DNA from: Moniliella sp. 'wahieum'
Lineage: Eukaryota
Direction: 5' to 3'
Assembly: GCA_003971905.1 (NCBI GenBank)
Contig: RSEE01000105.1
Location: 124,001-188,000, forward strand
Length of the DNA stretch: 64,000 nucleotides
A program made the translations under genes and the position numbers. Under the pieces are notes generated by a model. That model saw nothing but the letters and a program-made list of their open reading frames with translations. It did not search any database and was not told the origin of the DNA. Shown one piece after another: positions 7,958 to 60,737 of this stretch; positions within the stretch are counted from its first letter, which is position 1; the number at the start of each line of letters is the position of its first letter.

Positions 7958-8972
7958 ATCAATGGGAACCAGCCGGCTGGCCTCAGGGTTCACTCTTTCA
8001 TTATTCCAACGGGGCCATCTGTGCGCTCAGTGAGCTGAGCCGCTGAAGGATAACATTGTTAGAGGGTAGTGGTAGGATTCTCCTGCACGGCCTTCAATGG
8101 ATCGGTGACGCTCGCTTAGCCGGAAACCATGGAATATTGAACGATGTCGATGATTGACCTGATCGCAAGATACCGCGACATGGTTGGCATCGGGCTTCCA
8201 AAGCCAGGTACCAGGTACGATCAGCCCCGGTACGTGGCCTGAACGGCCTGAGGCCTGACGCCTGACGCGGCCTGACGCTTGAAAAGGTTGAACACGTTGA
8301 ACGTTGAACATGAGTCCGTCGGTATAACCGGTAACCACAGGAGCCGGCAATAAAACACGTAAAACCTCCGCATCCGGATGATGCTCATCGATCATCACGC
8401 ATCGTGTATCATGCATCATGCACCCAGTGACGTCATAGGGCAGCTTGGCGTTGCTTATTGAAGCTATTGGAGCTTGAAGCTTGAAGAACAACAGAGCAAC
8501 TATAATGCTTGTGACGCGGGCATGCTGCGACGGTGGAACGGTGGCCCAGGTGGCGACGGGATGGAGCGGGAGACGAGCTGGGGAAAGGGTTGTATGGAAC
8601 GGTGAAGGAGGGGGCAAAGATGGTCGCAGATCGTCGCCATCAGCACGAGAACAGAGGCTGCACAGACCGGGGGCCGCGTAAGCCCGGGGGGTCCCTTCCC
8701 GTAATACGTAAATTGGATTGCACTGCCCATTCATGCCTTGGCCCAACAGGTGACTCGTCAGTGACGGACGACGCCTGCGGAAGACTGCGCAGACGAAGAG
8801 ACAGAATGGGAGATCGCCACCGTTTCCCATCAACCTCACTATATATTTTTCCTCTCTCTCTCGTCTCTATCTTGGGGGTCTATATATCTCTCTCATCGCC
8901 CACGCCCCCATCCATTTACATGCCACCCCCCTCCACCATTCTGCCCCCAATCACTTGGACCCGCAGCCGCCC

Positions 8973-16598: not shown

Positions 16599-17229
16599 GT
16601 GCCTGCCTGCTTTCTTTCCTTGCCTTGGGGGGCGTGTGCGGGGCAGCGTCCGCCGGGCAGAGGTAGGATAGGGAATGGGAATTGGGAGGGGGGGACGTTA
16701 CCTTGGTTCCGTTTTTGTCCGAATTGGTGCGGGCAAGAGCGGGAATCGAGGTGCACTCTTGCTTGCCTTGTTTGCGGTCTTCCCCTTTTGTCCTCTGTTC
16801 CTTACTGATGGGAGCGGTAAAAAAACCCTTGGATTCTTGGTGCTTGTTTGGTTCTGTGTACATCTACCTTTCCCGCTGTCCTGCCCGCCCTCCGTCCCCT
16901 CCCCCGCTCCATTTGACTCCTGGCCCGACCATAGGCCACACCCCAATAAAGAAACAAAGCCCTCATGCCTGCCGACGTGTGCTGCCGTGCTCGCTCCCCA
17001 TCTATGTTGTGCAATGAGCGTTCCGGACGAATAGAATCCCCCCCCTTCTTCGTAGGCGAACATGGCCCTTGACTGGGCCGGACCAGTTCGCGCTTCAGTG
17101 CCTCGGGACGCACACATGATGATAATGGAGACACGGTTAGATTGAGATGGCATGGCAGATGATGCATGATGCATGATCGATCATTGCAACGGCTATGAAC
17201 ATGTGGGACCGTTGAACATTGTCGACGGT

Positions 17230-18129: not shown

Positions 18130-18738
18130 GAACCCATCATCCTCATCGGCAGGAAGAGTGAGTGCGGCCCCAGCGCCTCAGCCTGAGGACGCAGTCTGAG
18201 GACGCAGTCTGAAGACTCAGCCTCAGACGGTCAGCAGACGACGCCAGCGCTGAGGCTGCGCTCGCCTAAAGGCGTAAAAAACGGGACCGGCTGGGATTCG
18301 AACCGGGGCGAGGGGGTGCACGTGTGACAGTCAGCACGTGACTGGGGTGTGACATGTGACAGGCGACGCGAAGGGCAGCGAAGGAATGCGCTCAGGTAAT
18401 CCATCCGATTGGACGCCAGCCGACGTGGAGGAGCATGCACGGGGGAGGATGCGTGCATGCCGGCGCCCCCGCCCCCGCCGCTGACCTCAGCCAGCCACAC
18501 CAGGCGGACCACCGTCGCCATCGCCACCGCCACGCCTCCATTGCCATTTCCTGCCATCCCGCCACCACCATCCTCACCGCCATCCCCACCGTCACCCCCC
18601 CCATCCCTCCCCCCCTCAGCATTCACCCCCCCTCGCCCCCCCCCGCCCCCCCTGCCCTTGCCTTTCTCCTCCTGCCGCTGACCCCCTCCCCCTCCATCCC
18701 CCCCGCCCCCCCCCCGTTCGCCCGCCCCCCCTCTCCTC

Positions 18739-27486: not shown

Positions 27487-28484
27487 GGTGGACGCAGAAA
27501 ACGAAACGAGCGGCCAGATACGACCGACGAATATACGAGGCCGCGTCCGCCGTCTGCATCACCCACCACGCGCAGCGCCGCCATTGCGTCACACCCGCCC
27601 GACACTGCCCCCCGGCCCACCCGCCCGCGCTTCGGCCCGCTGCTCACCGGTCAGCGTCAGCTCCGATTTGTGCCGCCCACACGGGGCCCGTGCGCGACCT
27701 CGGGGCGCAGCGGGGGGGCGCTGTCCTGCGCGTCGCCCGGTCATCACGCGCTACAGTCCCCGCGTGCCCGGTATGTTCTGGCGGTAGGGTTAGGGTTATC
27801 TCTGTGTTCGTTTTGCGCAGTGCTCGGCTGCTGAGTTGAGAAGACTCGCTCCTCCCATGTCACACCTACCATGACACACATGACATGTCCCGCTTCACCC
27901 AGCATCGCTCCTGGCTTTGGCATCGCACTTGCTTCGCGTAAGACCGGAGGAACCCAAGGGGTTGGGCGATGAACCTCTGCAAACGTAGAGCAATGCAATC
28001 GCGGTGGTGGTGGTTGGGTCTAAGCCCTGTAACACACCTAGAGGAGACAGGGGTTCCAACAAGCCTGAGTATCGACCTGGAGGCTTCGGAGGTCAAATCA
28101 GGGACAAAGGGTGATAATCGATAAGGCGCTTTGGCCTATGTACGGGACGGCCATTGTTTGGTGATCCTCCGGTTGTGGCACTGACGCAGTGGCACCGATC
28201 CCCCACGCGCCCTGGGTTCCTCTCGAGCACGCACCTCACGGGGGAATCTATGTGCCTGTAACTACTCTCTCTTACATACTGGCTGGATTTTTCGCAGCTC
28301 CGACGACTGTGGAGATGAGTGCGCAGACAGAGTTGCTGCGGCGATTGCCGAGTGGCGCAGCGGGGCGCTTTTTTGGGAGGCGCCCACTCCAAAGCACAGT
28401 TGGGTTATATAGTAGCCTCCCATACGTGCGCTGCCTCGCCACCACTCCCTTCGGGCCCACCACCATCCCCGCTGTGTTTGCAGC

Positions 28485-30879: not shown

Positions 30880-30885
30880 TCCCTC

Positions 30886-31505
30886 AGTCGCGCGCCTGCG
30901 GCGACCAACCCCGCGTTTGACGGGTCTTCCTTGTTACACCCCTTCTTGTAACCCTTTCCCTTGTGATCTTGCCCGTACCCCTGGTTGATGGGGATCCTTT
31001 CCCCCACCTTCCATTCTCGTCATCTCTCGTCCACCCTCAGTATCCTCGTCCTTTCACACCTATCCTGTCCTAACCCTGCCCGTTTTCCAGCTAGAATGAT
31101 CCACTTGACAGTCAGCCACCTCTTGTTAGCGTTCTACTTCTCCTACGACCTCGTCCTCCAGCAATCCGTTAGTCCAGTCGCGCGAGCCCTCCGCTAGCCG
31201 CGTCGATTTCCAGCCTCAATCCAGTCTCAGTTGAGGCAGTCTTTGTCCGCCGCTGCTTCCTCCCATCCCTAAGTCCCGGAGGCTTCAGACATGTTACTAC
31301 AGCCCAAGCCGGTGCAGACGCAGTCTTGCTACACGAGCAGCCGCCCCACCAGAGTCCTCTCCTCGTCCCTAGCTACTGTATGCGCGGATTCACCAACTAG
31401 CCCAAACCCGAAACTACCGTGAGTCGACCTACCGTCGCCTAAGGGATGGCACCCCGAAACCCCGGGCGAGCCCCCTCGCGGGGCTGCCCCGTGAGACATG
31501 TGACA
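30886..31505 (-). mobile_element. LTR-like repeat fragment
   Basis: Reverse complement of about 4145-4850 (ctcctcgtccctagct, cccgaaactaccgtgagtcg, aagggat..acccc). Ends ...CCCCGTGAGACATGTGACA. Confidence 0.72.
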
Positions 31506-31717: not shown

Positions 31718-32303
31718 ACGAAGAAGTGCTATCGGATGATATTATTAGTGCCTTCACAGCCTTCGTAGCCTTCGCTTGCTTCGTCTGCTTAGGGTTAGCA
31801 CTGGAGAAGCAGGTATCTGCACCCTAGTTGACCGGTAGAGTGGGGCGCCCCCCCCCCGTAGAAAGGCAGGGGTTTCAGGATGAAGGATGAGATCTGAGAT
31901 CTGATACGACGGAGAATCTCTCCTTTCTATCTCGGAGGGTGGACAAGAATCTGCCAACAACACTATTGCTCGCCGACCTGCACGTGACGGGTGATGGGTG
32001 GAGAGCCGCGAGGAGAAGCCTTTTATTGGGGCGTGAAGCTTGATTGAAGCTTGAAGCCAAGGCGGCTGCCCCAAGGCTGCGTATGCGCCGGCTTGGGGGT
32101 AGCAATGCTAGTAACGTGTCTGAAGCCTCAGGGGCTGATGGACGGATAAAGAGAGACAAGGGAGATGGAGGGAGCAGGGCATGCGCAGCGGCCTGCGAGC
32201 GTCACCGTGCTGGGGCTCCCTGGCACTACCCTCCAACCGAAGCAAGCGAAGACTGCGAAGGCTGCGAAAGCACTAAGAAGATCATCCGATAGCACTTGCT
32301 CGT
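31718..32303. mobile_element. MITE/foldback-like element with ~66-bp inverted repeats
   Basis: 31718-31783 is the reverse complement of 32238-32303 (about 58/66 identical by eye). The interior contains an LTR-family fragment at about 32056-32150. Confidence 0.65.
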
Positions 32304-32470
32304 ATATGATGTGGAGCCGCTGCGGCGATCGCCAAGTGGCGCAGCGGGGCGCTTTTTTGGTATAGCCGCCCACTCCGCTCCACGGTTGGGTTATATAGTA
32401 GCCTTCCATGCATGCGCTGCCTCGCCACCACTCCCTTCAGGCCCACCACCATCCCCGCTGTGCTTGCAGC

Positions 32471-34929
32471 ATGCTAGCGCGTCTGCCGTTGAAGGTCCTC
32501 CTCCGAATCGTCGTCAGCGGCGCACTCAGTCCGCGCGACCTGCTCAGCATCGCCTCCACATGCAAGCGTGCGTATCTCTGCCGCCAGGCACAGCGACCGC
32601 GCAACGCTGACATGGCCCTTTACCCACAGACCTTCATGCGACACTAGATACTGAGCCGACCTGGAATTGGCTCGCGTCACGTCTCCTTCCTATTTGCCCC
32701 CAGGCATCACTGGCTGACGCCGCGCGGGACCTGGGGTTTGATATTGTCCCCCAAACATGGAAAGGACTGCTCGTGGCGGCCGAGCTGCTCGAAGAGCAAT
32801 TTGGATATACTCTCGAGGGCAAGGCGATCACCCCTCTCACTGACCCTGCTCCTTTGGCCGATACCGTACCACAAGTCTTCATCGACAGCAGGCCTGAGAG
32901 TGCAACCAGTCGTAATGAGTATCGTGGCGATCACAACGTCGATTTCAAGCAAGTCCCCTGGGTATTGGCGGAGCACAAGAGACGACATTCGTCGTGTGAC
33001 TTTCAAAACCCTCGGTTTCGCAGCAACAAAGCGTGGTGGCTGCTAAAGCAGTTGGGGCGGGAGCAGCGTGCGTGGTTAGACCGCATGCCATGTAAGGTCA
33101 GCTTGGATACCATCACATGTTCGCCTCCAAGATATGGTCTTACGAGGCGTCTCCTGAATCATGCTTTATGGGGGGAGACTTTCATAACGACCTTATCCTA
33201 CTTTTGTTCTACCAAGTTGGCGCGGATGCCGGCGAAGGTGCGTATGTGGTCTCCCTTCACCGCGCCACCAGGCCGCTGCATATCGATATGGAAAACAGTG
33301 ATGAATCATTATGTTGGGTTCATGAGCATGACATTGTCATGCCCTGTGCATCAATTCCTACCCATGACCACCCTTTCATCGTCTTGGATGGGTCTACACT
33401 TCGGTTTTTGTAAGTCCAACCCTGCCCCATTTTTCGAAATGCTCTTGGCATCTGACCGATTTCATCATCGTTTCTGCATCATATCCAGAGACATTGAGGG
33501 CCGACAGAAGTGGTTTTCCGAGTATGCCATATCAACGGGAAAACCTACATGCCGGACGGTTCTGGATGCACCACAAGTCGATTCCTTGGCGCATCACTCT
33601 CTCAATAATCGCCCCTTTCAAGTCGATTCAGACTTTCTGTTTGTGTTATGCAAGAGAGAGCTATTCGTTTGTGACCGTGTATCGGGCGGTCGCCTTTGGT
33701 CACTATCCGAAATGATGCAAAACGGATCAGGTTACTGCTCCAATATGGTACACCTTTCTATTGGTGGGACTGGTTCGCCTCTGGACAAACCCTGTTTACA
33801 GGACGCGGTAAGCATCCGTTCCCATTGCCTTGTTTTCGGGACCAAAAAACTAAATGATTTTTCTTTGCGCTTCAGGATCCACCTGACTGGTGCTTCGATT
33901 GGGGAAGCGATGGTAACATCATTATCTCTTCACTAGAAGTGTTCCCTGCCTCGGAGAGTTTTTGCTTTCTCCTGCGCACGTCTCGTGACTGTTCGCCTGT
34001 TCCCTCCTATCTCTGTATATTGAAGGGCTATCGCCATGCCTTTACCGGGGACGTCCATACCCACCCAGCTTGGTTTGTCACGGTCAACTTGGGATGCATT
34101 ACTACTCCGGGTCCAATCATCCCTCCGACTCTCAACTATGACAGTCGCTTCATGTACCAGACAATCTCCGACGGCTGGTCATACAAAGTGGACTCTGTCC
34201 TGCCAGGCGAGATGGTCGCCATTGAGAACAAACCCGTCCAACCAAAGCCCATTCCGTCAAGCAGAACTTGTGTCATCTACAGTGGTCCTCGGCTGCGCCT
34301 TGGATGCCTCAGGTTGGTCCTTGTTGACTGGAAGCATGCTCGTCTTCCCAATGAAATTCGGTTGACAGACATGCCCCTTCGACCGATCCGGGTCGATACG
34401 CCAACACCGATGGTCTTGGGACCTGATCTCATTGTCCCTGATATTTCCCAAATTGAGAAGGACAAAGACAAGAATCAAAACCAAAGTGGGAACAACAGCG
34501 TCCGAGATCCCATGGTTTCCACCGATTCGTCCACTCCCAATCCACACCCGGAATTCTTCTCGTACAAAAACACCTCCACTTCCTTAATTGAGATGGGCAG
34601 TATCCTCTTCTCCACAGGGGCGTTTTTGGCATTGAGAGACATTTCATGTGATTCGAGAATGTACCCTCCTTCTCGCTTTCACCAATTATATTGGGATTGG
34701 GGTGCCAAGGCCCGCCGATGGCTCCAAACCCACTGATTCCATCCCATTTGGGACCTTCAACATCCTCACAGCCTGGACTGTGCTTCCCTTTCGGTCCTCA
34801 CGCCTCATTTCCCTTGCCGCATTTCCGACAGGTAAGACCCATCGAATCCACCGGTGGTATGCGTTGGCAGGAAAAGGGGAAAGTGTTATACGGGCTGCGG
34901 CGGACCCGATGGTCGGATCCAAACGCTGA
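32471..34929 (+). CDS. F-box protein, copy 2 (introns)
   Basis: MLARLPLKVLLRIVVSGALSPRDLLSIASTCKR, collinear with copy 1, with an extra 3' segment ending ...PMVGSKR*. Confidence 0.68.
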
Positions 34930-35099
34930 CGCCCACCTGCTCCGCACATGCCCTGTAGAGCGTGCTCCGCAGGCCAACCAAGTGTGACATGTGATGATGG
35001 TTGGCTAAATAGGTGTCGTGGTCCGAAGGGCCATGCGTCCGCGCAACATCCGCGCGACCGTCGCCCTCCGCCCAACCGAGCTTCCACCTCTGTCTCCGT

Positions 35100-35710
35100 T
35101 TCCTTTCCTTTCTCGGTCGCGCCTGCGGCGACCAACCCCGCCTTCGACGTGTCTTCCTTTCTGCAGACCTTCTTGTATCCGTTTCCCTTTTGATCATGCC
35201 CCCCCCCCTGGTTGTGGGGGATCTTTTCTCCCACCTTTCACTCTCGTCATCTCTCGTCCACCATCTACCCGTCATTTCCCGCCTATCCTGTCCGACCCCT
35301 GCCCGTTTTCCAGCCAATTGATCCAGTACATGATGCCTCCTCTTGTTAGCGTCCGACTTCTCCTTCGACCTCGTCCTCTTGCCATCCGTCAGTCCACAGT
35401 CGCGCGAGCCCTCCTCTAGCCGCGTCGATTTCCAGTCTCTTTCCAGTCTCTTTCCAGTCTCAGTTGAGGCAGTCTTTGTCCGCCGCTGCTTCCTCCCATC
35501 CCTAAGTCCCGGAGGCTTCAGGCTTGTTACTCCAGCCCAAGCCGGTGCAGACGCAGTCTTGCCACACGAGGAGCCGCCCCACCAGAGGCCTCTCCTCGGC
35601 CCTAGCTACTGTACGCTCGGATTCACCAACTAGCCCAAGCCCGAAACTACCGTGAGTCGACCTACCGTCGCCGAAGGGATCGTACCCCGAAACCCCTGGG
35701 CGGGCCCCCT
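35100..35710 (-). mobile_element. LTR-like repeat fragment
   Basis: Near-identical to 30886-31476 and homologous to about 4165-4870. The terminus is replaced by (GAGTTCT/GAGTTCC) repeats. Confidence 0.72.
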
Positions 35711-36639
35711 TATGAGTTCTGAGTTCTGAGTTCCGAGTTCCGAGTTTTCTATGCGATCGAAACGCGTACAAGGGATGGTATCATCGAGGACAATATATCA
35801 GGGATGGCTAGCGGCTCCCAACAAATTGGATTAGGCGGCGCACGAAAGCTATAGGCGGTGCGCACACAGATGCGTGAAAAAGTTCGCAACATTTTAATGA
35901 CCTGAATTGTAGTACAGGCTGCCTAGGCGCCTCTTTCCGCATGAGGCCTGAGGCTCAGGCTCAAACGCATGCGTTCCTGCCGCCTGAGGTTCAGGCCTGG
36001 GGTCCCGAGGCTTGAAGCTTGAAGCTCTTAAGGCTCCCGATCTTAAGCTTCAGGCTTCAAGAATTTCAAGCCACAACAAGTCTATTAGTCTCAGATCTCA
36101 GATATCAGAAACTCAGTAGACTCACACGCGGACTCATCGGTCAGGAAGGCTGACCCACCACACCGAGCCTCAAGCTCCTCTCGGCCGCAGAAGCTTGAAC
36201 TTCAAGCCTCAATATCGCACTATCTCAATCTTCAATCTTCAAGGCTATCATGTGGATCAGGCATCTCATACAGCACAGTGCATCAGCCTCTGAATCAAAA
36301 TCAGGGAAAAGAGAAGAGAAGTATAAGGCCTAAGGGTTAGGCCATGCACCATGCTTTGTCGACGAGCGATCGCTTGAGGCATGGATGTATGATGCATGAT
36401 ATGCGATGTATGACGCGTGACGCGTGACGGGTGCCGCTGTCGGAGCCGCGCAACAAAACATTTCCGGGACGAGGCGCAAGGGTGTGTGGGACTCTTGAGA
36501 TTGATGTCGGCGAGGCCGGAGGGCATATGCCATGTGACATATGACATGTGACATGTGAGGCCTGAGAGACCCGGAGAGCCCAGGGTGGGGGCGGGAGAGG
36601 GAGCTCAGCCGGTCAATATAAGTCAACGGCGGGTCAGCC

Positions 36640-36689
36640 CTTGTCAACCCTTGTCAACCCTTGTCAACCACGTCAACCACGTCAACCAC
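36640..36689 (+). repeat. Short tandem repeat (CTTGTCAACC)x3 then (ACGTCAACC)x2
   Basis: Read directly from the sequence. Confidence 0.85.
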
Positions 36690-38344
36690 ATCTCGAACTC
36701 AACACACAAGTTTTGAGTCCAATGTTCAACCACTAACCGCTCCGCCTGGACGGATAAACGTTAAACGTAGCAACAGTAAACTGCTTGGAAGGACGCGGAG
36801 GATTCAAGTCAGTGTGTGGTTCCCGAGGAGCCTACTGTTCATGAGGCTGTGACATGTGATGGTAGAGAGCAGCGTCGTTAACCGCGTTAACGTCATTAAT
36901 GCCATTAAGCATTAGCGCGTCTGCGTCTCTGTTGATGCATGATGTACCTCTCCGTATAAGCCACAATTTGGTTCTATAGTCGATCCTATACAAGCCGAAA
37001 GGGCATGCGCTTATGGCGCTTATATGAGCCAAAAGCGGATGGGATAGGCGATTATAGAGAAGCCAGAGTAGTGACATTTATACTAGCGGTTATTATAGCA
37101 ATAATGCTTCGTTCGTGCCTTGGTTACAAAACGGAGAGAGGGCAGCGGGAAGAGCACAGAACAGAACAACATGACCGTCGATGAGATCGGTGGACTGTAG
37201 CTGGTTCTATATTTAGCAAAAGTGCGAAGCAGAGACGAACGAGTACACACGGTACTGCGAGCAGCCTAAGATCAAACTGCTGACTGTGTTGACTGCTGAA
37301 CGCTGGAATCAACCTCTGAGGATTCAACCTGAGTGCGCAGCCAGCCCAGAGCAAGTTTTGAAAATTGGCATTGAAGCTTGAAGGTATACCTCAAGCGGGA
37401 ACGAGAACAAAAAGAAAGAGATTATGCGCGCACGGGGAGTGGCTATCGAGTGGCTTTTGTTGTAACTAATCAGCAGTTCTAGTCACTAATCACAGGTCAC
37501 TGCATCTTCAAGCTTCACAGCTAACCCTCTCTTCTGTACTCAGTGTACTCAGTACTCACTGCATGTAATCACGTCCTCTCAGATCTCAGATCTCACGCGT
37601 CACACCAGCGACATGGCCACAAAACACCTGCAACCCCACCCTGGAGGAAGAGGAGGGCACATCAAACATCTGCCTCAAGCTTCAAGGGGGTCTCTCAGGG
37701 TCTCGATCTGTAGCACCCTCCGGCCTCCCGCGTCCCGTCGCCGTCAACGCGTCTCAACGTGTCAACTTTAAACCCCTCAAGGTGGTGACAGATCTGAGGC
37801 TCAGATCTGAGGGATCTGAGGTCCAAAAGACCTAAGAAGTTCGAGATCTGACTGGAGAGTGACTAGTGACTAGCGACTAGTGACTCCCCCCGGCGATGAT
37901 GTCGATGATGAGAGTCAAGCTGATTGGTTGAGCTTAGTCGAGCTTCAAGCTCCAAGTGACGAGTACTAACTACAGTGATCCCCCCAGTTAGTACGTTATA
38001 CGGCAGCCATTTCATTGACGGAGCTTAAGGCTGGGACAGGGGAACGCTACGCCTAAACCGACCCGTTCATTTTGCGCGTGTTACTTGGCAGCGCCACCAT
38101 GCTAGGGAACCAGGGGGATCGCCAGGATATCAGGAACTCTGGTGCTCGCTATCCGGTCCCATACCCGAGGTATAGCGCGTGTGAACACGGATGAACGTGG
38201 TAGACTTCCGAGCTATAAACAAAACACTGTCGACTTGAAGTGCTTGAGGTTCTACGCCGCGGTATCTACGCCCTTTACATGTTACGCGTTGCACGTCTTG
38301 AGGAGATATTCTCAGCTCTGGCAGTACTTGTCCTCCACTTCTTC

Positions 38345-38626
38345 TACCCGTCCCTACGCCCCAGAGGTTTCAGTCACGTTACTACGGCCCAAGCCGGTGC
38401 ATATACGCTGCCTTGCACACGTGTGCCATCAGTGTAGCCACCTAGGCTTGACGACTTTAGGGCTTGGCTCCCAGAGGCCTCTCTCTCCTCGTCCTTAGCT
38501 CCTCTCAGATCCACCATCTAGCCCAAGCCCGAAACTACCGTGAGTCGACCTATAGTCTCCGAAGGTATTGTACCCTATAACCCTGGGCGAGCCCCTTCTT
38601 GGGGCCCGTCTCCGTGACATGTGACA
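38345..38626 (-). mobile_element. LTR-like repeat fragment (terminal part)
   Basis: gttactacggcccaagccggtgca...agaggcctctct...ctagcccaagcccgaaactaccgtgagtcgacct...ccctgggcgagcccct...ccGTGACA matches the 31.2-31.5 kb and 35.5-35.7 kb copies. Confidence 0.75.
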
Positions 38627-38980
38627 TTGAAGCAGGGGAAAGAACGGAAGGGATGGCTTCAGTGCAGATCAAGAATGGTAAAGGATGGAACGGTACAATG
38701 AGGAGCGTATAGATAGTAAGCAAGGCAGCACCATTGGTAGTTACTACTATACATTCCTGGCCGACGGCTTGTCGCCGTGACCACACGATAAAAAGGGAAG
38801 GTTCAAGTGACGTAACTAGTGATTACTGTACTGTTACTACGCGCAAGCGGGGCGAAAAAGGCGCGAAGGCTCATACTGGCGTCGTAGGAACTGAGAGAGT
38901 CTACGCGCCGGACTGCACTTGCCAAATTAAGTACGAACGACACCGCTTGGGCGAACCGGGTGGCGTCGTAAACACGCGTA

Positions 38981-39035
38981 TAACGCACAACTCGTAACGC
39001 ACAACTCTTACGCACAACTCGGAACGCAGAACTCG
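38981..39035 (+). repeat. 12/13-bp tandem repeat (AACGCACAACTCG)x4
   Basis: taacgcacaactcgtaacgcacaactcttacgcacaactcggaacgcagaactcg. Confidence 0.8.
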
Positions 39036-42000
39036 TCACGCGGATGATAATCGATAATCGATAAATCGATAATCCAAGGCAGACAATCCCAAACGCATTC
39101 ACTTCTTGGCAGATCCATTTCGCACTCGGTTGTAACGTACCATACTCTGACTAGTACTCAGTCTGAGTAACTCAGTACCGAGGAGTGCTCACCTGCTCAC
39201 CGGTCACTCAGTCTGAGATCTGAGGTCTGAGGACGACTGAGCGCACGCCTCTCCGCCTCAGCGCTCAGTCCGAAATTGAAACTGAATATCCAGATGGTAA
39301 GACCAAGGTCGGAGAGACGCCACACCCCCGACACGCGTCGGGTAATCTGGCAGCCCTCACGATCTCAGATCTGGAGATATCCAGCGTCCAGATGGCTGAG
39401 GGGCAGGTCCACACGTACGTACATTCCCAGTATTCAGATTGAGATTGAGATTGAGCTATTGAGTCTACATACTCAGCACTCCATACTGCGTAGTGCCTCT
39501 CCACTGAATCAGTAACCGGTAACCGGTAACCGCCTATAGTGGGGCCAAGGTCAGATCTCAGCCTGAGGCTCAAGCCTCAGGCCCTCAGGCCTCAGGCCGG
39601 GCAAGCGGGTCAAGCTTCAAGCCAAGGGACCAGCGGCTCAGCCAGAGCGCTCACACGGAGCACCGCGCGCCCTCAGTCTGAGTACTCAGCGCGTCAGCCG
39701 CTCCGGCTGAGCCCTAGTAAACCCTTGAGCCCCCCACGGGCGAGGTACGGGCATCCATGCATCATGCATCATGCATCATGCATCGAAGAATTCGATCCCC
39801 AAGCTCCCTGGCCAGCAGCTTGAAGCGTTACACGTTACACGTTGTTAAGCCTTTTGGAAGCGCAGCCACAGGATGTCGGATCGTCGAATCGCACAGCACA
39901 ACAGTACTGTGGTACTACCGAGCACTGGATCTTGAATCCTGAGGATTCAGTCCGAGGCCTGAGCGCCTGAGCGCCTGAGCCTGAATATTGATTGCAATGA
40001 ATCCTGCGGAATGCTATGCGCGCCCCCACCATCCACACATCCACAACAATTTATCCGCCACGCTCTTGGGGGCGCAGGCGTCCTGCCCGTCTCTAGCTGG
40101 TTCAGCCAAGCCGTCGGAGTGGGTGGTGAGCCGTGGCGCGTGACCGGTAACACCGGGCCGGAACCGCGCAGTAACGCGTAACGGGTGAAGTGAACCTTGA
40201 GTCTCGCGTATTGACCTCATGGCCTCATCGATCATCGGACGAACGAAGAGCTATGCAAGTGGATGCAAGACGCGCACAGCTACGGTCGTTTGAGGTGGAG
40301 CCCATGCAATACATAGACCCACCGGAGCAACTACAGGACAATACCTCGGTGCTCGTACTTGTACTCAGGTGAGTGAGTACTCAGCGCCATAAAAATGGGG
40401 TGTGTTTGGCGTGTGTGTGCGCTGATTGGGTGGGTGTGTAATGAAATGGATCAAACGAGCGTGGGGGTGGGATGCCAGGTGCCTAGCGCCAACAAACACA
40501 GCTAGGTGCAAGCCAACAGGGGCTTGGATGGGCAGGTGCGGCGGAGGGCGGAGAGTGGGCGAATGTGTGGTGGCGGAAACCCCGCTGGTGGAGGAGTGGG
40601 CGCTGGAAGGCGAGGCGCGTGGCGAGTGCTACGTATCGAGGCCGGATAAAAAAAAGCAGAGCGAGGGGGCAGTGGCGGGGTGGGTGGGCGAGGGACGGCG
40701 CCTTGTTTCTGGCTATGCTGTGCGTATGCGATGCTGGGGGGTAGGGTTAGGTGTGTGAAACGATGCGCGTGATGCAATGCACTGCGATGCATAGGCCGCC
40801 CCCAAGCCAGAGCAGCCATCATGCATCATGCATCAGTGCTCGGTGCTGCATTCTGCGCGCCCCCCACACGGCAGTGTGTGGCGCAGGGGGTGTGTGCCTT
40901 GCGACGGCGACAACAAAAGTCCCATGCAGGCGGAATGCATACGGCTGCTGCTGTCCGCTCGGGTGGGATGGATGCCTCTGCACGAGGGGACCCTAACCCC
41001 CTCCCACGCTGTCCCACGTCGCTTCCGTCCTGCGCAGGGCCTGCGCCTGCCATGCACCATGCCAGATCCGCGCGGGGCCGAGGCTGGCGCGTTGTCGGCC
41101 TACGTACCCCCTCCGCATCGGACAGCTGGAGTGGGCATGTGCTGCGCTGCCTTTGCCACAGCACGCCCTAGTCTGTCTCGATCGCTGGGCTGCGCTCGGC
41201 TGCGCTCGGAGGCACTGGGATCGATGATCGATCGGGCTGCGTCGGGTGTCGCAGAGGATGGGTGATCTGAGACACACGCCATACTATGGCGGGTACGCGC
41301 TGCGCTAACCATCTGTGTATGTATAGGTGTATTGCATAGCATCCTCCATCTTGCACCCGTCCCGAGGCGGCGGGCGCCATCTCGGGCACGGGCGATGTGT
41401 GCGGCCTGCACCCCGGCGACCCCAGATAAAACCCTGGCACACGCGTCTGCGGGCGTGGGGCGGACCCTCCCATCACCCTCCCTCTGCTCCTCCACCCTGG
41501 TCTTCTCGCTTCCGCCCGCTGGGTCCCGTGCCCTGCCCTCCGCTCCGCCCCCTCGACCCTTCCTTCCCTCCGCTCTGCTCCACCTCCATCGCAGCTCATC
41601 CCCTCCCTCCCCTCGTCGTACGTGTTACCCCTTCCGTCCCCCATCCACACCGACAGCCCACAGCCCACGCGGGGGGCAGTCGTGCCTCTGGCCAGCACAC
41701 CTCCTCCAACCGCTAGTCACTACCTTGCCACTACTACCTTCACCAGTCCAGTGCGCCGCCGCACCGTCGTTCTGTGCTCTTGCCGTCGCAATCGACCCAC
41801 TGGCTCTCCTCCGCCTGATCCGTCGTCCCGCCGCCCACAACACAACTCCGTCGGCGCCCCACCGATCGCCGACGGTCCGATCCCACACCCCACTTCACAT
41901 CCGTACTCAGTAGTACTCAATACTCAGTACTCCGTGCCGCCACCCGAATCACAGCTGGGCAGCCGGACGCTGGCCATGTCCTTAGCGTTGGCCCACGTGC

Positions 42001-51839: not shown

Positions 51840-54800
51840 CATGTGGCATGCGACATGTGACATGGGATGCATGATGTGGCATGTCACCATGTCACCTGCC
51901 ACGTGGATCCTAGATCTCGTGCTACGTTGTGCTACCCCCTCGATGTGGCTATGCCGATCCAAATATGCTTGAAGCTTGAAGCTTGACGCGTGACGGACAG
52001 CCATCCTGCGCATCCTGGGCGTCCGGGGGCGTTGGATGTTGTGACATTTGGCACTTGACAAGCACGGCATGTGGCTCTCGTGTTGTCCAGGTTTGTTCCT
52101 GCTGGTCCCTGCTGGTCCCTGTTGCACCCGGCCGCTAAGCGCACGGTTGCCCGGGTACCCCTCCTTGGCGCACAGCCCCAGGGAGTCCCAGCGCTTGCCA
52201 GAAGCGCCAACAGGTAACCTGGCTAACAAAAACGTCCCTCCGAGCTTCCCCATGTCTTCGGCATACCATGGGAATATCAACTGACACAGTGCCGACAGCT
52301 TGGTCGGATGCATGATGCATGATGGATCTGATATCGGCGTGCATCGAGTACCGAGTATCCGAGCATCGAGCAGCATTGGCATTGGGCGGTGATGTGACTG
52401 GTGACTCAATCACCAATGATTAATGACGCGGACGAGCGTGTGATATTATCTCCTGGCTACCCTGCGAGGAGGGAAGCACGTTGCAGCGGGCGAGGAAAAG
52501 TGAGTGACATGCATGTGACATGTGACATGTGAATGTGATCAGTTCGATGGGTGGCATTATTTGCATGAATTGCATTATTCGTAACGCGCAACGTGCACCG
52601 CGGGATTGTCGGGATTAATGATTGCACGTTTCACCCAACCGGCAAGGGTTTCGAATGCCATGTTTTGAGAATGCAATGGCAGCTTGCAGCACGCAGTGCT
52701 CTTATTGGGCGGTGCAATGCATCCGTGCCGTAGAACGGTTAGCGTTACTATGTTTACAGTTACTAGTGTTACCTTTTAAACGTTCCTAGATACTAATGGT
52801 ATTTTTACGCTTTCACGCAAACAAACACCTTTCAGATGTGCCGATGAGATCGATAAGCCTGAGGACTCTTAGATCTTATCGATTCACGCGCCCCAAACTA
52901 CAGCAACAACCCATTTATTATCTCTTTGTGGCACAATAACTTTGGTCTTTTGTTTGCGCGGCAGCAGCCGTTCTATCAATGCAACCCGCGTAGTACAAGT
53001 GACTTTCGGTGTCCATGTCATATAGTGCATGGCGCATTATTCAGCAAGACCAAAACATCCCAGAAGAGAGGCCATCTTCTGGCAGCTACACGAGAGAAGC
53101 CCCAACCGATCCTAAAAGTTCGTACCCTATACCTTCCCGGTGCCTGTTGCCCTTCCCAGGAGAGGGAGGGCTAGCTCCATCCACTATTGACTACACCGTT
53201 GAGATATTAGATCAGAGCGAACTGTGTTGAGAGAGAGTCATATATCGTCGGTGACGCGGTGACGTTTTGCGAAAAAAAGGATTGATGAGTCGATCGATTG
53301 ATGGATGGCATTCACTTTTTGCGATTGTAATAGACCGCACATGAGATGTGTGGATGCCACACACCTGTGTAGTCCGGGTGGGCAAAACAAAGATATCTAT
53401 ATGTATCGCACGGCAGGAAAGCTCTGATTGACACGTTGAACGTTGACGCGTTGACGTATCGCCGGTCCGGCGAGGACGTATTTGAGACACAAAACAGAGC
53501 TGCCAACGCTCAAAGGTGCGTCGAGGAGAGACCATTGCATGACCTCCCCGACCACTGCAGGAACATTAGGACAGTGTTCCTGATCGATGGTCGCTGCTCC
53601 ACAGGCTCCGCATATGTTTCAGCTGTAGAACACGCACTTAATCTGGGTACTCGAGGCTCAGATCTCAGACTTGAATGATCTGACTTGTAGATGACAGTTA
53701 AATGCATTACACACACATGCGCTCCAGTGGAGGCTAGGGAATAGTCTTGTCCTCTTCATCAGGAGGGAACATCGGAAGGTATATGAACCGACACGAGGGG
53801 AACCGGGCTTGAGCTATCGGCCACACACTTGAGGCACCTTGGCCTGTATATGGACCTCTGCCTCTGTAGATCCACAGGCTCTTATCGTACCCCCTCTTCG
53901 GAACGGAGTCCTGAGTTCAGTACTGAGGGTTCTAACTGAGAACTGATGACTGATGTACAACTGCCTGAGGCCTCAGCCTGAGGTATAATCGATAATCGGT
54001 AAATGTTTCCTGAAAAATGCACACCTGAGTTCTGAGATGGCGCTTCCACTTGCGAGGCAGTTCATGCATCATGCTTCATGGGACTGCGACAATGCCCAGA
54101 TCGATCATCGATCATCGGTCATTCTTTGACATCTGTCAGTGATGCATGATGCATGATGCGTTTCGAACTGCAGCTGTCGCACGTCGAATGTCACAGGTCA
54201 CATGCATCACGCGTCATTCATCATGCATCATGCATGTCAGTGTACTCAGCGTCAGCGTCAGCGGGGGCCCGGCACTGTACACGTCCAAATGGCACACATG
54301 CTGAACAGGCAAATGCTTGTGACATGGATCACGCAGCATGCTGATCGATGCATGACCGGTGATTTCCCGATGCATGACGGCGCTGCAAACAACCATGTCT
54401 CACACCAACAAACATGCCGGCGCCACACGCCACCCCTTAGCCACCGGTCACTCACGCGGAACCATGAGCCTTTCAGCCCAACGTTCAACACCAGAGCTGA
54501 GCTGAGGTGGCCGGTGGACGTACCGCGTAATAACATTGTGCTGAATTTGGAATTTGCACGCGCCAGAGCGGACAGCGTGGGCTCCCCTTTGGTCTACCCG
54601 GCTGTGCCCTCCGTCCAGTGCCCACTATCACTAGTCCCTGGAGGGCTGGAGTGCATGTGGACTGCGTACCGAACGCATCAATTTGCAAGGACGGCGCTAA
54701 TCGCTAATCACTTGGTAGTCACTACTCAGTCGCCATTATTCCTGGGGTACCAGCCATTGGTACATAAGTGTTTTTGGTTACGAATAGCAAGGAACATATG

Positions 54801-57570
54801 AACGTTGAACCGGTCAACCTGCCAGCAAACGTCAAACACCAGTACTCGCATCAGTGCATCAGCGTCGTGACATGTCACATGTCACACGCCACGCGCGTCA
54901 CCTATCTCATTTCCAAGCGCAGGTGGGCAGTGCTGTGCAACCCTTCGAGTCCGACCCGCGCCTGGCAGTTCAAGTTGAACGTTGAACGCTGACCGGTGAT
55001 GGGTTGAATTGACGTTTAACGCTAACGTGTAACGTGTAACGCTTACCGGGTACCATTATACCATTGCCATTGCCATTGCCATTGCCATTGCCATTGCCAT
55101 TGCCATTGCCATTGCCATTGCCAATTCCAATCGCATTCACATGCGTTGTGAAAGAAAAGCCCAGGGCGCAGAATTCGTGGCGTGAAACATGTACCAGCGC
55201 GTAACCGGGTAAAACCCGATCATCGATCATCGATAATCGACAACCCCCTTCTCTCCCCATTTTCCATGCGAGGCGCGGCCAATTACTTCGAGCTGCAAGC
55301 TACAAGCTCCAATATTCTAATAACACTCATGTGTGCGGTGCACGATGCTGTTGGCGGGGCGAGGGGGGGGGGGTCGCCGGTGGAGTATGTTGCCAGGCAG
55401 CAATGAATTGAATGGCTGCCCTTTTGAAGTACTGTACTATAGCCTCTCCACTTGTGATGGGTGACGACCTGTTAGATCTTAGATTAGCGCTTAGCCTGGC
55501 AGTCCTTCCTACCGCGTCTCCTTGATGACTATGATGTCTCCGATCGCCTCTCTTCTCGAGTACTTGACCGGTAACCGGTGACCCGCCTTGTCGCTCTTCG
55601 GCTCTAAGGTCGTTACCGCGTTACCGTCCAAAACGCTTTGTGTGTATCCGGATCCCGGTTCCCGTTTCCAAGCGTCGATCAACACACACTCTATGCTCGA
55701 GCCGGCCTCGAGGGGAGCGAGGCGCAGAAAAGGGCCCAGGGTGTTAGGCTCAAATTGTCAGATCTCATATCTCAGAAGATCTCACAGCCAGATTCTCATA
55801 TCTCAGATCTCAGACTTCTGCTGAGATATAGCGCCTACAAGGCTGAGGACCTATCGGGCTGCATTCCATACATACTGTCAGCGCGACAGCGCGTGTCGGA
55901 TCTCAGCGCTTCAGCGCACCGCCTCAGCCAACTTATATTACCGTCCCGCCACACAGTCGGTCCAACGTTCAACGTCATCAACGTTATTGATGATCGATTA
56001 TCATGCATCACGTATCAGCGTTTCACGTTGAACGACGTTGGGATCTGGGGCCAGAAAGCTCTGACTGAACTGAGCGTTTGCTGAGCAGCCCGAGCAGGGC
56101 TGGGCGCTCCGGCTCAGCACATCCAATATCCACCATGCGCAAGGAAGAGAATGCGAAATGCACCGCGCACTGCCAAGCTGGGACAGGAGCATGAAGCACA
56201 TCATGCGAGTTGTGACATGTGACAGGGTGCATGTGACATGTGACAGGGGGCTTGTTGACATTGACATATGCGACATGCGACTGACAGGATGGGACTCGCA
56301 TGGCGGGTGACGGTCACTGTGACATATGACGTGTGGCATAGATACCGAGTGCAGAATGCGGTATAGTCGGAAGAAAAGGTGGAAAGGGCTGGTAGGAAAA
56401 AAAGCGCTCTGCAAGCTGCAAGATTCATGGGTCGATCATCGATCATTCAACAAAAATGCATCTTTCGTGTGTGCGGCCGTTGGGACAGCGCCACCTCAGG
56501 CCTCTTAGATCTTAGATCTCTTAGATCTTACTCTCAGGCTGAGGATGCGCTGAGCGGCTGAGGAGCGCCGAGCTGGACCGAGATTGGATATTGATACGTC
56601 TCTGAGATCTGAGATCTGATGGCGTGTCACTGTGACATGTGACAGCGCGGGGGGACGGCGAGACGTGGAAGGATGCGGATGGCACATCTTCCCGTCACGC
56701 CCCAGCGCGTCAGTATTCAATATTCAATGCTTGTCCACGAGCAACGTGCAACGTGCATGTCACGTCAACGCGTCACCAGCCACACTAACGCACAGAATAA
56801 TGCCATCCACCGATCAGCCAGGATCATGCAGTACGTCAGTTCTTCGGTTCAGCGCTCAGCGACGCTCAGTGCATTCAGCACATTTAGTCCTCAGTTACTA
56901 GTTACTAGGGACTAGTCACTCGGTATGGAGTGGGTCAGCGTAGGACGTTCAACGTTCAACGTTCAAGCTTCCTCCGCGTCTACGTTTTTGCGTTCGGCGT
57001 ATACGTTCAGCACATGCAATTGAGCATGTTGATCGCGATGATGCACATGCATGCTGGATGTATCGAGTATCGGTCATCATGCATCAAGCTTCCAATGGAT
57101 CCAGTTGAGTTATCGATTATCGATAAATCGCGGTAACTGATCGAGGCTTTTTGTTCACCGTGTTCGATTCACACGACGGCAATACCATACGGTCCATCCG
57201 TGCTCGCCGTTCGCAGTAATACTCTTCGTACTCAGCTTGAAGGCTGAGTGTCACATGTCACAACGTCACGCGTCGTGCGCGTCATGCGTCAAAGCGCCAT
57301 GCCACATGCACATATTCACATGGCACCCGTCACACGTTGACACACAATGTCAACATGTCAATCGCGTCACCGGTTCCACCGTTCGACGTTCACCAAAAAT
57401 GTCACCCAAAAAGGGTTCGCTGGGGCGCTGGACCGCTGCAGCCTGGGGGCTGTGGTGGGGTGGGTACGTATCCCCGACACCGATCACCGATCATCGATCA
57501 TCGACCACCGCATGCAGCGTGCTATCAATTCAGGACAGCAGCTGAATCACCGGCATCACGCGTCATGCAT
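51840..57570. repeat. Second dense field of 7-bp-phased TNA-N4-TNA micro-arrays
   Basis: 51970 TGA-AGCT-TGA-AGCT-TGA-CGCG-TGA; about 52515 TGA-CATG-TGA-CATG-TGA; 54868 TGA-CATG-TCA-CATG-TCA; 55565 TGA-CCGG-TAA-CCGG-TGA; about 56603 TGA-GATC-TGA-GATC-TGA; 56949 TCA-ACGT-TCA-ACGT-TCA; 57110 TTA-TCGA-TTA-TCGA-TAA. Confidence 0.9.
55061..55123 (+). repeat. (CCATTG)10 hexanucleotide microsatellite
   Basis: Read directly from the sequence. Confidence 0.92.
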
Positions 57571-58110
57571 GCTGCACAGGCAATACGAATAGCATGAAAC
57601 CAAACACAACCGAGACAGCAGTGCGATGCTGCAGCCTCTCCCCCCGGCCGGCTGTGAGACACGGGCTGTGCAGCTGCCAGCCCCGATTGCCAGCTGCTCG
57701 GCTGAAACTCTGGCAACAAATTTGCACGGCACCCATATATATCTACCCATCCCATTCTTGCCCCACATCCTCCATCTTCCCTGTTGCGCCCCCCCACCCC
57801 CACCCCCGTCCCTCCACCCACCATCTCTGTCCACTTGTCTTTCTTCCAGCCGATCGCTCTGCCGCCTGCGCTGCACGCCCCCCCATCTCGCTCTACCTTG
57901 GACCTATGACACCTGTGGTATCTCTTGCAGTGCGTTTCAGCCCCGGACGCGCAAGTCCCCCTTCTCTGTTTGCTAACGTTTCTGCCTTTACTGCCGCTGC
58001 CATATCTTCTACCTTTTTCCCGCCAGGCCACGCCCGCCCCCCACAAGTCCGTTTATTGTCGACGCCGCCGGTCCCCGTCGCGCTCCCTCACCCCCCACCC
58101 TTTTGCCCGG

Positions 58111-59573
58111 ATGACCATGCCTGCTCCCAAAGACACTGCCAGCCGCTTTGCCCCGCCTTGGCAGTCACTCGGCACCCCTTCTACTGTTCCGCATCGCCCC
58201 CGCCTGCCCCACGGGCCGATCAAATTGGCAGGGTCCGACTCCCCCCACCCCTCTCTCATCGGCGCCAGGATCCAACCTTGCCAACCAAGGGGAATACATT
58301 GGCCAAGAGCGAGCGTTCCCCCCCGCGCTTGCCTGGAATCTCCTACATTGACCAATTCTTGCCTTCCAACTACTTTAGCCAGCGGCCCTCTGAGGCCGAC
58401 ATGGCCCGGGCCGAATCCGAGTCAACTGCGCCGGACGAGAACGGGCGGTCGCTCGCTCCTTTGCCCCTGCCTCTCGCTCTTCCTCCGAGGTGAGATGGGA
58501 AGGGCAAGGGTTAGGTCGCTGGGGGGCAAGGGGGGGAAGCCATTCCTTGCCCAACTTACCCTCTCGCACCAGCTCCAGCTCGAATGGATCGAGTACCAAC
58601 CCTCCACCATCAACGTACCTTACTTGCTCTCTCCCGAAACCACCACCAGCACAATCACCAAGCCCACTACCGCCGCAGCCCCCCGGCCTCCTCTCGCCTC
58701 TCACCTCACTCATCTTGCACCCCCTCTAGACTGGGGCGCAGTGAGCTTCCTCCCTACGCTCCAGGTCGTACCTTGCCCCCTCTTCTCTTCTTCTTCGGCT
58801 TCTGCCTCTGCCTCTGGTGCGCGGTACTACCCTACGCCATCGTACGACCGATTCAGAGGCACCTCTCATGAAGCAGGCTACACACGTCGATTGTCCGAGA
58901 CGAGCTATGGGGCACGCTCGATGCGAGGGGTGTACCCGTGTCACCCTATGGCGGCGAAGCTGGCTCTGGCTACGCATCCAAGGAAGGCGGTGCCTACCCC
59001 GACGCGGTCCATGGTCCCACCCGAACCCCTCACCCGCTTCTTCTGTACGACAAGCATCCTCTTCGCCGCCCGCGTCGGCTCGGTATTCCCTCGGCGTCGA
59101 CTTGGGCGTCAGCACACGACACCATCCCTACTTCGTCCTGCTAGCCCGGCCCGACCACGACGACGCAGCGAGCATCTGTTGTCGACGTGCATGGACGATG
59201 CTGGCTTGCCGGCTCGGGGGGGGCAGGGACCGAGGTGCCACCTACCCCCACCCCTGGTTCCTGGCCTCCCGTGGCCCCACCTCCGTCTCGGTCTCGGCCT
59301 CGGTCTCCCCCGTGGGTACGGGTGCGGGCGTAGGAGCGCCGCGCACGCGCCCTCCAAGCGGCGCGGCAAGTTGCCCAAAGAAGTGACGGACTTTTTGCGC
59401 ACTTGGCTGTTGGACCATGTGGATCACCCGTATCCCACCGAGGAAGAGAAACGCCAGTTGTGCGAGGCGACGCACCTGTCGATGAACCAGATCTCAATTG
59501 GTTTATCAATGCGCGCCGACGCATCCTCACCCCATTGAGCCGAGCGCCTCGGGCGAACAGGCTTGAAGCTTGA
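58111..59573 (+). CDS. TALE/KN-class homeodomain transcription factor (Cup9/Tos8-like); probable intron about 58490-58570
   Basis: KRRGKLPKEVTDFLRTWLLDHVDHPYPTEEEKRQLCEATHLSMNQIS[frameshift]NWFINARRRIL. The PYP insertion marks the TALE class. Stop TGA at 59571-59573 in the corrected frame. Confidence 0.87.
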
Positions 59574-60737
59574 AGCTTGATCTATCTATATCTTCTATGG
59601 CGAGCCATTCGTGCGTCTGTGAACCTACCTGTTCCTCTAGCATCTGTTTTTGTCATCTCAGTCCAGCACCCAACATCTCCCGCTCTCAGATCTCTTGCCG
59701 GCGGTTAATCTATACTATGAGAGAGATGGACCAGTGGCCGAATGCGCATGCACGCAGTTGGTAGCGCCATGCGAGGGTAGAGGGGGGGATGCGGCTCGGT
59801 GGGCGGGGGGCCGAGGGAGGGCGAGACAGAGGCGGTGGAGATGGAGATGGAGATGGTGGCGAGACGACAGTAGGGTTGCGAGGTCAGGCCTGCCTCAGGG
59901 GCGGTGGGGCAGCGGCGGGTGCGACAGGCGAAGATTAATTACACTACGTCCACTGCGTGTGGAGAGAGTGGGGTGACATTGGCAATCGCACGGCTGGCAG
60001 CCGCTGCGCCTGGTGTGGGTGCGCCTGCCGTGCCGCTGGACGCAGTGGTGCGTACGCCCCCCCGCGAGTTAGCAGCACGACGCACCGTGGGGCGCTGTGG
60101 TTCATGCAATGCCCGCGTGGGACCAGCCCCGCCTTGAGTAGGCGCGTAACGCGTAAGTCTGCAGACCAGCTGCGGCTCAGGGGCTTTGGCCGCCTGTGCT
60201 GGCCCCGCAATCCGGACTGCCAGCGTCCTGCGCTGCTCCACGCGTCTCCTGGCGCCCTGCCCGCTCCCTCGCCCCCCCACTCGTGACGTCACTGCCCCCC
60301 CTGGCTGGGCTCTCGACAGGGGTGTAGACAACACGGCCTCCGGCGCACGACGGGCGCCGACGGAGAGTGCCCGTTGCTGCTCGCCCGCCTCGGCCCGTGG
60401 TCAAGCTTCAAGCTTCAAGGCTGCGTGGAGGGCCCATCGGCCATCCCTCTCCGCGGTGAGACGCAGGCGGGGCATCCAGATGCCGACGTTTCAGCCCACG
60501 CACGTACAGCCACCCCCCCCCCCCGGCTCCCCCAACGCGAACCCCTCTCCCCAATCGTATCATCATCCTACTGTACGCGGTACGCTTCCCAGCCGCCGCG
60601 CTCTGCTCCCTCCGCCACTTTCACACCCCTCCTTCTGCCCCGCATTGGCCCCACACCCACTCTATAAGCGCCTGCGACCGGCCCCCATAAGCACGTGGCC
60701 AGCATACGAGCCTTCTCTGCTCTCTCCCTCCATCACC

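Follow-up and report, generated by a model that had tools for sequence, protein, structure and literature searches.

The 64-kb window analysed here (contig RSEE01000105.1, positions 124,001 to 188,000) carries in its non-coding DNA a lattice in which T-N-A triplets (hereafter TNA, N being any base) recur at a step of 7 bp and the 4 nt between them tend to form a palindrome. This lattice is a real and highly non-random signature, and it is apparently undescribed. It is best explained as the record of a lineage-specific mutational process and not as a functional element. We tentatively propose, with a confidence that stays somewhat below even, that the arrays are mutational scars of a 7-bp staggered break centred on TNA, joined through a 4-nt palindrome templated by the flank and enlarged by re-cutting or slippage. 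All lattice statistics given below cover this one window of 64 kb.

Period, core and spacers of the lattice

A period of 7 is visible without any assumption about the motif. Between positions 35712 and 40200, the region in which a sequence-only reading of the window had described the lattice, identity at lag 7 is 0.321, compared with 0.22-0.28 at lags 1-6 and 8-13. Measured against 100 third-order Markov sequences, TNA-N4-TNA occurs 67 times in this region where 23 are expected (z of about 7-9) and 257 times in the whole window where 96 are expected (z of 16). When the spacing in TNA-Nk-TNA is varied, the maximum falls at k = 4, with an echo at k = 11. The excess at k = 4 that the claimed 7-bp step implies is therefore present across the window and far above the Markov background. 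Exact arrays of period 7, comprising at least two copies plus 3 nt, number 37 and are absent from 20 third-order Markov sequences, and the same criterion yields only one, three and three arrays for periods 8, 9 and 10.

The units of these arrays are of one kind. Among the 70 exact period-7 runs of at least 15 nt, 40 are, in some rotation, a perfect odd palindrome xyzNz'y'x', and the inner pair is T..A, that is, a T-N-A core, in 39 of the 40; the tandem odd palindromes xyTNAy'x' of the sequence-only reading are thereby confirmed. After the removal of 10 low-complexity units, 48 of the remaining 60 arrays contain TNA. The same filtered comparison gives 17 arrays of period 5, five each of periods 8 and 9, and three of period 10, so that the 12 TNA-less arrays are about the number predicted from neighbouring periods and the period-7 excess is a TNA phenomenon. 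The arbitrary units and the spread of unit lengths that characterize micro- and minisatellites generated by slippage are not seen.

The spacers follow an equally strict rule. A perfectly palindromic 4-nt spacer is found in 132 of the 257 links, against 6.4 expected, which upholds the earlier statement that the spacers are mainly palindromic tetramers, and no such excess is found for spacers of 2, 6 or 8 nt between TNAs. Of the 16 possible palindromic tetramers, 14 are in use; the nine that had been named as examples (AGCT, GATC, CGCG, CATG, CTAG, TCGA, CCGG, GGCC and TGCA) all lie where they had been reported. The central base is copied together with the triplet: a palindromic spacer is combined with the same N on both sides in 115 links (1.8 expected) and with the complementary N in only nine. 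In 95 of these 115 same-N links, N is G or C.

The module S-N-S'-S-N-z', which reads xyTNAy'x'xyTNA when the arm is 3 nt and the inner base is T, was counted on both strands. With that arm and that inner base, 136 occurrences stand against an expectation of 0.4. Only two, three and one are seen when the inner base is A, C and G, respectively, and arms of 1, 2, 4 or 5 nt remain at background (0-1 for arms of 4-5 nt). Isolated xyTNAy'x' heptamers, which lie outside any period-7 context, are not enriched (127 versus 143 expected), suggesting that the palindrome arises along with the duplication. The minimal forms tell the parts of the unit apart. The 10-mers TNA-P4-TNA, in which P4 is a palindromic tetramer, are enriched (nine versus 0.9 expected), and the 11-mers P4-TNA-P4 are not (one versus 0.5 expected), so that TNA appears to be the duplicated part and P4 the filler. 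A footprint made of a 4-bp palindromic duplication around T-S-A (S being G or C) was also considered, and the lack of enrichment of P4-TNA-P4 rules it out.

Grouping of the links yields 98 arrays, of which 81 contain a single perfect link and 17 contain two; array lengths peak at 12 and 19 nt. In 77 of the 98 arrays the period runs on for at least 2 nt past the array on at least one side, for which the chance level is 12%, and we take this to mean that the flank serves as template for the filler. The commonest boundary class, (2,0)/(0,2), holds 23 of the 98 arrays and corresponds to xyTNA-y'x'xy-TNA, a 5-nt direct repeat split by the reverse complement of its first two bases; 31 isolated 12-mers xyTNAy'x'xyTNA occur. 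The nearby classes (0,1), (0,3) and (0,4) hold seven, 10 and seven arrays. We regard the modal class as suggestive, since it is significant and not overwhelming.

At four sites (17160, 36535, 37579 and 51970), palindromic spacers of different sequence follow one another on a single TNA register, and in every case the first base after the last TNA is the first base of the new spacer. The clearest case, AGCT-TGA-AGCT-TGA-CGCG-TGA-CG at 51967-51995, has as its new spacer the palindrome of the dinucleotide behind the array, with both bases matching. Spacers that are only partly palindromic comprise 29 with an inner and 21 with an outer palindrome, where about five of each are expected; this balance fits the decay of full palindromes and not the addition of single palindromic (P) nucleotides. 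A model in which P nucleotides are added at both ends predicts two different palindromic heptamers side by side and was ruled out, as adjoining heptamers differ in this way only once and share their arms in 43 pairs.

The lattice lies in non-coding DNA. None of the 132 palindromic links falls within sequence scored as coding by a simple codon model (14,071 bases, or 22% of the window); the model is conservative and misses some genes, and the near-absence from coding sequence that had been noted earlier agrees with this count. The links concentrate in two gene-poor tracts, at 36-41 kb and 51-58 kb, where they reach 13-14 per kb, compared with a window-wide density of 1.8 per kb, and outside the two tracts the perfect lattice makes up 0.6% of the bases. 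The second tract (about 51.8-57.6 kb) is as rich as the first and lies beyond the region named in the sequence-only reading. That reading held that the lattice fills the non-coding DNA. It is indeed present there, but only 7.7% of the region is perfect lattice and 14.9% is lattice with one mismatch. Its short intergenic cases likewise hold at 8245-8486, 17159, 18348, 31888 and 60401, but at 28-48 the array, (GTTCACA)3, lacks the palindrome.

A staggered break as candidate origin, and its rivals

The fixed step, the symmetric triplet, the copied centre and the flank-templated palindromic junction lead us to propose a staggered break followed by hairpin opening. The sequence rules and counts are observed; the break itself, its hairpin, the agent responsible and the succession of steps are what we infer from them, as follows. 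A dimeric enzyme of the transposase type would cut nnTNAnn with a 7-bp stagger, and candidates for this agent are a cut-and-paste element with 7-bp target-site duplications and flank hairpins, or a nuclease derived from such an element. Departure of the element would leave the 7-bp site in two copies. A flank hairpin opened 2 nt from its tip would present a 4-nt self-complementary overhang, and if one overhang were kept and the other trimmed, xyTNAcd would become xyTNA-y'x'xy-TNAcd or the mirror image. The net gain would be 7 bp, with two TNAs of the same N joined by a flank-templated 4-nt palindrome. The perfect palindromic heptamer in such a scar would be a better symmetric target, which could be hit again or be multiplied by replication slippage, so that the array would grow by sevens. 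A hit on the last, non-palindromic unit would introduce another spacer without a change of register, as at 51970, and point mutation would later decay the arrays.

Two properties expected of a hairpin-type footprint are found in the window, namely a duplication of fixed length, as only period 7 is enriched, and a palindromic junction templated by the flank (132/257 links palindromic, 77/98 arrays with a flank match). Of the three causes that the sequence-only reading had offered, a break with hairpin or fold-back synthesis at TNA accordingly fits best with respect to the 3-nt arm, the inner T, the copied N and the flank match, whereas the agent that it calls for was not found in the window and is postulated.

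Several observations weigh against the proposed break. No transposase domain was detected with Pfam in 68 open reading frames (ORFs) of the window (20 of at least 200 aa and 48 of at least 130 aa), and no element with terminal inverted repeats and a TNA-centred duplication of 3, 5 or 7 bp was found there, the only candidates being lattice arrays that pair mutually. Real end-joining footprints are heterogeneous, but the junction here is almost always the full 4-nt palindrome, and the variable P length and nibbling expected at hairpin footprints are not seen. The class in which both overhangs are trimmed (+3, k = 0) is at background (128 versus 127), and that in which both are kept (+11, k = 8) is not enriched (109 versus 100). 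Plain 7-bp duplications with a central TNA are rare, TNA occurring anywhere in only seven of 29 non-palindromic two-copy arrays, and 11 of the 98 arrays lack any flank match. The hAT transposases nick one nucleotide into the flank, which would predict another junction. To our knowledge, moreover, a scar density of 13-14 per kb, as in the tracts, far exceeds that of any transposon footprint. A more specific form of the proposal, that a transposase resident in this fungal lineage, domesticated or still mobile, forms hairpins with a 7-bp stagger and repeatedly writes TNA-centred palindromic modules into open non-coding DNA, we consider doubtful. If it were true, intergenic DNA would grow by templated insertions that improve their own target, a mutational mechanism so far undescribed.

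Replication slippage of hairpin-prone units, in which chance palindromic heptamers duplicate and expand through multi-register fold-back with no special enzyme, was the third of the suggested causes. It would account for the dominance of arrays of two to four units with identical spacers (adjacent spacers are the same palindrome 21 times and different palindromes four times), for 14-mers in several phases (six in (0,4), three in (1,3), four in (2,2)), for the predicted folding of every listed unit and for the roughly geometric fall-off of array lengths. However, the mean minimum free energy predicted for three units with DNA parameters is -3.2 kcal/mol for TNA cores, -3.4 for ANT, -5.2 for CNG and -5.6 for GNC, and, per base, the predicted folding is stronger for 9-nt than for 7-nt units. 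TNA is thus the least stable of the four core types, yet only the 3-nt arm with inner T is enriched (136 versus 0-3), and ANT cores, which are equally AT-rich, are not. The preference for the most stable fold-back units expected of an expansion driven by stability is missing, and we conclude that hairpin stability does not set the rule. In addition, we estimate from the frequency of TNA that chance would supply the two tracts with about 45 seed heptamers, a number below that of the arrays they contain, and slippage leaves unexplained both the one-sided 12-mer class and the new palindromic spacers on an existing register. Slippage may lengthen arrays, but it cannot set their rule, and as a full account of the lattice it is rather unlikely. 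The other transpositional explanation is that elements duplicating a 3-bp T-N-A target (IS5 or PIF/Harbinger type) left the arrays as Tc1-like footprints, each consisting of TNA, two terminal bases from each inverted-repeat end and TNA. IS1031, IS5 and PIF/Harbinger elements characteristically duplicate T-N-A or TWA, TNA-P4-TNA has a formal analogue in the Tc1 footprint TA-CATG-TA, and the enrichment of the minimal TNA-P4-TNA without that of P4-TNA-P4 agrees with such an origin. A footprint of this type should nevertheless show few spacer types that are independent of the flank, whereas the 14 of 16 palindromic tetramers in use would require many families with different termini, and the correlation of spacer and flank in 77 of 98 arrays is not explained by element termini. 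Harbinger elements, furthermore, prefer A or T as the middle base, against G or C in 95 of 115 links here, and no element of this type was found in the window. We consider this origin quite unlikely.

Unlikelier still is that the arrays are selected, as sites of a DNA-binding factor (the second cause suggested earlier) or in some other role, for instance as insulators, origins or transcript punctuation. The confinement of the lattice to non-coding DNA, the position of the densest tract upstream of a TALE homeobox gene and the fact that CATSATG, TGTSACA, CTTSAAG, GATSATC, TCTSAGA and GTTSAAC account for most arrays would suit selection. Transcription-factor clusters are expected, however, to show enriched single sites and freely varying bases where no contact is made, and the window has neither: isolated heptamers number 127 versus 143 expected, and N is copied and not free (115 same versus nine complementary). 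Only T and A are invariant, which amounts to about 4 bits per 7 bp, the palindromic spacer has no role for half-sites in direct repeat, and many arrays are visibly decaying. Because a factor that reads T and A needs neither a copied N nor a palindromic spacer and should leave single sites enriched, this cause is disfavoured. An assembly or base-calling artefact is hardly credible, as the lattice consists of 98 short arrays (at most 29 nt) with 14 spacer types and unique flanks, is absent from coding DNA and obeys a sequence rule that no known error mode yields.

Features of the window and occurrence elsewhere

The positions of the tracts and of representative arrays are collected in Table 1, together with the bacterial loci discussed below.

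Table 1. Lattice tracts and arrays in the window, and (CATSATG)3 loci in three bacterial metagenome-assembled genomes (MAGs)
Feature	Position or locus	Remarks
Gene-poor tract 1	35712..40260	30 separate perfect TNA-P4-TNA segments; 7.7% perfect, 14.9% with one mismatch
(TGAGTTC)x4.9	35713..35746	TNA-bearing; arms one mismatch off palindrome; at exact end of 4-kb duplication
(CTTGAAG) array	36010..36026	spacer AGCT
(TCTCAGA)x2	36089..36103	spacer GATC
(CGTGACG) array	36411..36429	spacer CGCG; 19 nt = TNA(P4 TNA)2 + 2 nt
Mixed lattice, one TGA register	36535..36565	spacers cata, CATG, CATG, GGCC
Mixed lattice, one TCA register	37577..37602	spacers GATC, GATC, then CGCG
(AGTGACT)x4	37858..37885	spacer CTAG; 90% matches
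(GATAATC)x4	39046..39074	spacer TCGA; TAA core
(GGTAACC)x3	39512..39532	spacer CCGG
Decayed (CCTCAGG)x6	39557..39598	spacer GGCC; 76% matches
(CATCATG)x4	39756..39784	spacer TGCA; longest exact array, 29 nt
Gene-poor tract 2	51840..57620	just upstream of TALE homeobox gene; 7.6% perfect, 16% with one mismatch; holds the mixed lattice at 51967-51995
Short spacer region	8245..8486	six palindromic links; units CCTGAGG, GTTGAAC, CATCATG, CTTGAAG
(CATGATG)x2.7	17159..17177	then TCGA link
TGTGACA x2, exact double heptamer	18348..18361	
(TCTGAGA) array	31888..31904	between both copies of the duplicated gene
(CTTGAAG)x2.9	59561..59580	
(CTTCAAG)x2.7	60401..60419	
Nitrospirae MAG, (CATSATG)3 loci	L121, L132, L138, L140, L154, L163, L175, L184	
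Muribaculaceae MAG, (CATSATG)3 loci	L128, L136, L141, L173, L174, L182	
Anaerolineae MAG, (CATSATG)3 loci	L122, L146, L147, L197	

The window encodes INO80 (19.8-23.6 kb, with DBINO and SNF2 domains), the E1 subunit of 2-oxoglutarate dehydrogenase (24.4-27.6 kb), a TRAPP subunit (48.2-49.1 kb) and a TALE homeobox protein (57.9-59.5 kb). Among the matches listed for a fragment of the dehydrogenase, the nearest is from Ceraceosorus guamensis (75% identity), followed by Tilletia horrida and Pseudozyma hubeiensis (72% each) and Malassezia (68-69%), and by this resemblance the window is Ustilaginomycotina-like basidiomycete DNA, although none of the listed matches comes from a close named relative. 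A metagenome scan for relatives by way of a duplicated lineage-specific protein (33858-34736) returned 81 pattern matches, none of which was a relative.

The gene for that protein, which belongs to no known family, lies in a tandem duplication of about 4 kb (28340-31475 and 32320-35708) whose copies are 88-96% identical; copy 2 carries a 257-bp insertion at 34841-35096. The homology stops at 31475/35708, exactly where the lattice-rich tract 1 starts. The duplication offered no means of polarising heptamer changes, as nothing behind copy 2 corresponds to the spacer that follows copy 1. Four to five copies of a conserved element, about 260 nt long, are present with 75-97% identity and invariant blocks (31225-31480, 35458-35713, 38310-38605 and, on the minus strand, 4178-4378, plus a partial inverted piece at 32072-32152), and a heptamer array directly follows three of the copies. 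Rfam was searched with this element up to E = 1 and gave nothing; the element may represent a small RNA gene, a repeat resembling short interspersed elements or miniature inverted-repeat transposable elements (MITEs), or a common 3' gene end.

The TALE (Homeobox_KN) ORF, at 57910-59538 on the plus strand, lies directly downstream of tract 2. It may be a mating-type HD gene, in which case the tracts could sit in a recombination-poor mating-type region. Within tract 2, a (CCATTG)n hexamer array of about 12 copies (55049-55136) represents a repeat type distinct from the TNA lattice, and at 54136-54241 inverted CATGATG/CATCATG arrays enclose about 60 bp, with the direct repeat GTCAG at the flanks. 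This layout resembles a MITE, although it may be a chance pairing of arrays. Elsewhere in the window, an 81-nt tRNA gene at 3689-3769 was detected with an Rfam score of 47.5 bits; its anticodon was not named by ARAGORN, and the gene probably contains an intron.

Metagenomes, prokaryote genomes and viral contigs were scanned with array patterns, and none of the 227 loci listed (1.2 Mb in all) has many spacer types at the density of the window. In metagenomes, (TGTSACA)3 was found in at least 120 stretches, and none of those listed carries a lattice with many spacers. The 82 stretches with (CATSATG)3 in prokaryote genomes and the 25 with (CTTSAAG)3 in viral contigs contain only the arrays that seeded the search. 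A metagenome contig with a GC content of 45% (L003, 935-1801) carries one long satellite of 900 bp in which CATGTGA and CAGTTGA alternate and which adjoins an ORF-like region, whereas the window has many short arrays. Several (CATSATG)3 arrays occur per bacterial genome in three of the MAGs, with eight, six and four loci among the 82 matches (Nitrospirae, Muribaculaceae and Anaerolineae, respectively).

Significance and relation to known systems

Full-text literature searches with keywords and with exact 14-mers and 12-mers did not turn up a description of the lattice, and a search by terms in two tandem-repeat surveys gave no mention of it (PMC3152781, PMC12699852). According to the consulted part of a smut-genome study, tandem repeats make up 4-7% of the tabulated smut genomes and 11% of that of Pseudozyma flocculosa, and they are not dissected there (PMC4824034). 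Therefore, the lattice may be widespread and have gone unnoticed. If the staggered-break reading is true, a single enzymatic reaction is recorded in a few thousand spacer bases, from which its stagger length, target triplet and point of hairpin opening can be read. A mutational process would then come to light by which intergenic DNA is shaped, and perhaps enlarged, in a group of fungi to which crop smuts and skin yeasts belong. Its strictness makes the signature suitable for a genome-wide search and for tracking in mutation-accumulation lines and, if a resident transposase of the kind considered above exists, for use as an assay of its action. The signature may also lead to the responsible nuclease, a possible candidate tool enzyme. 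If the arrays were instead selected, they would represent a new class of cis-element.

The closest parallels to the lattice are the footprints of transposons that pass through hairpins. In hAT, Transib, MULE and RAG systems, as far as the consulted text describes them, flank hairpins are opened by host enzymes and end joining leaves footprints (PMC5499845). The footprints of hAT, Transib and MULE elements and the P nucleotides of V(D)J joining share with the lattice the retention of both target copies, a junction palindrome templated by the flank and a step set by the stagger. The lattice differs from them in its 7-bp step centred on TNA, its near-invariant full 4-nt palindrome, its tandem recurrence, its density of 13-14 per kb and the lack of any such element in the window. 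Transposases with a 7-bp stagger do exist in Basidiomycota, where 7-bp target-site duplications are described for the hAT7 families of rust fungi and for Kyakuja of Laccaria, and the superfamily of hAT7 forms flank hairpins; however, in the part of the source consulted these elements are described from Pucciniomycotina and Agaricomycotina and not from Ustilaginomycotina, and neither a T-N-A preference nor footprints are reported there (PMC12730594).

Other known systems share single aspects of the lattice. Microsatellites and minisatellites are likewise tandem arrays that gain and lose units, probably by slippage, but the lattice has palindromic units and is enriched for only one period and one inner base. 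The intergenic heptamer repeats of bacteria (the cyanobacterial STRR sequences, GGGAATC in Xanthomonas and Nostoc, and TAACTGA in Beggiatoaceae) have the 7-nt period, the intergenic position and an unstable copy number; as far as the consulted text describes them, however, they comprise one or a few units per genome in long or opposed hairpin-forming arrays and do not follow a rule of T-N-A plus palindromic tetramer (PMC4692102, PMC4679880). The symmetric target triplet T-N-A of the lattice is also that of the IS5, IS1031 and PIF/Harbinger elements discussed above. These elements differ in that they duplicate 3 bp and not 7 bp, excise mostly precisely and provide no cause for palindromic fillers that match the flank.

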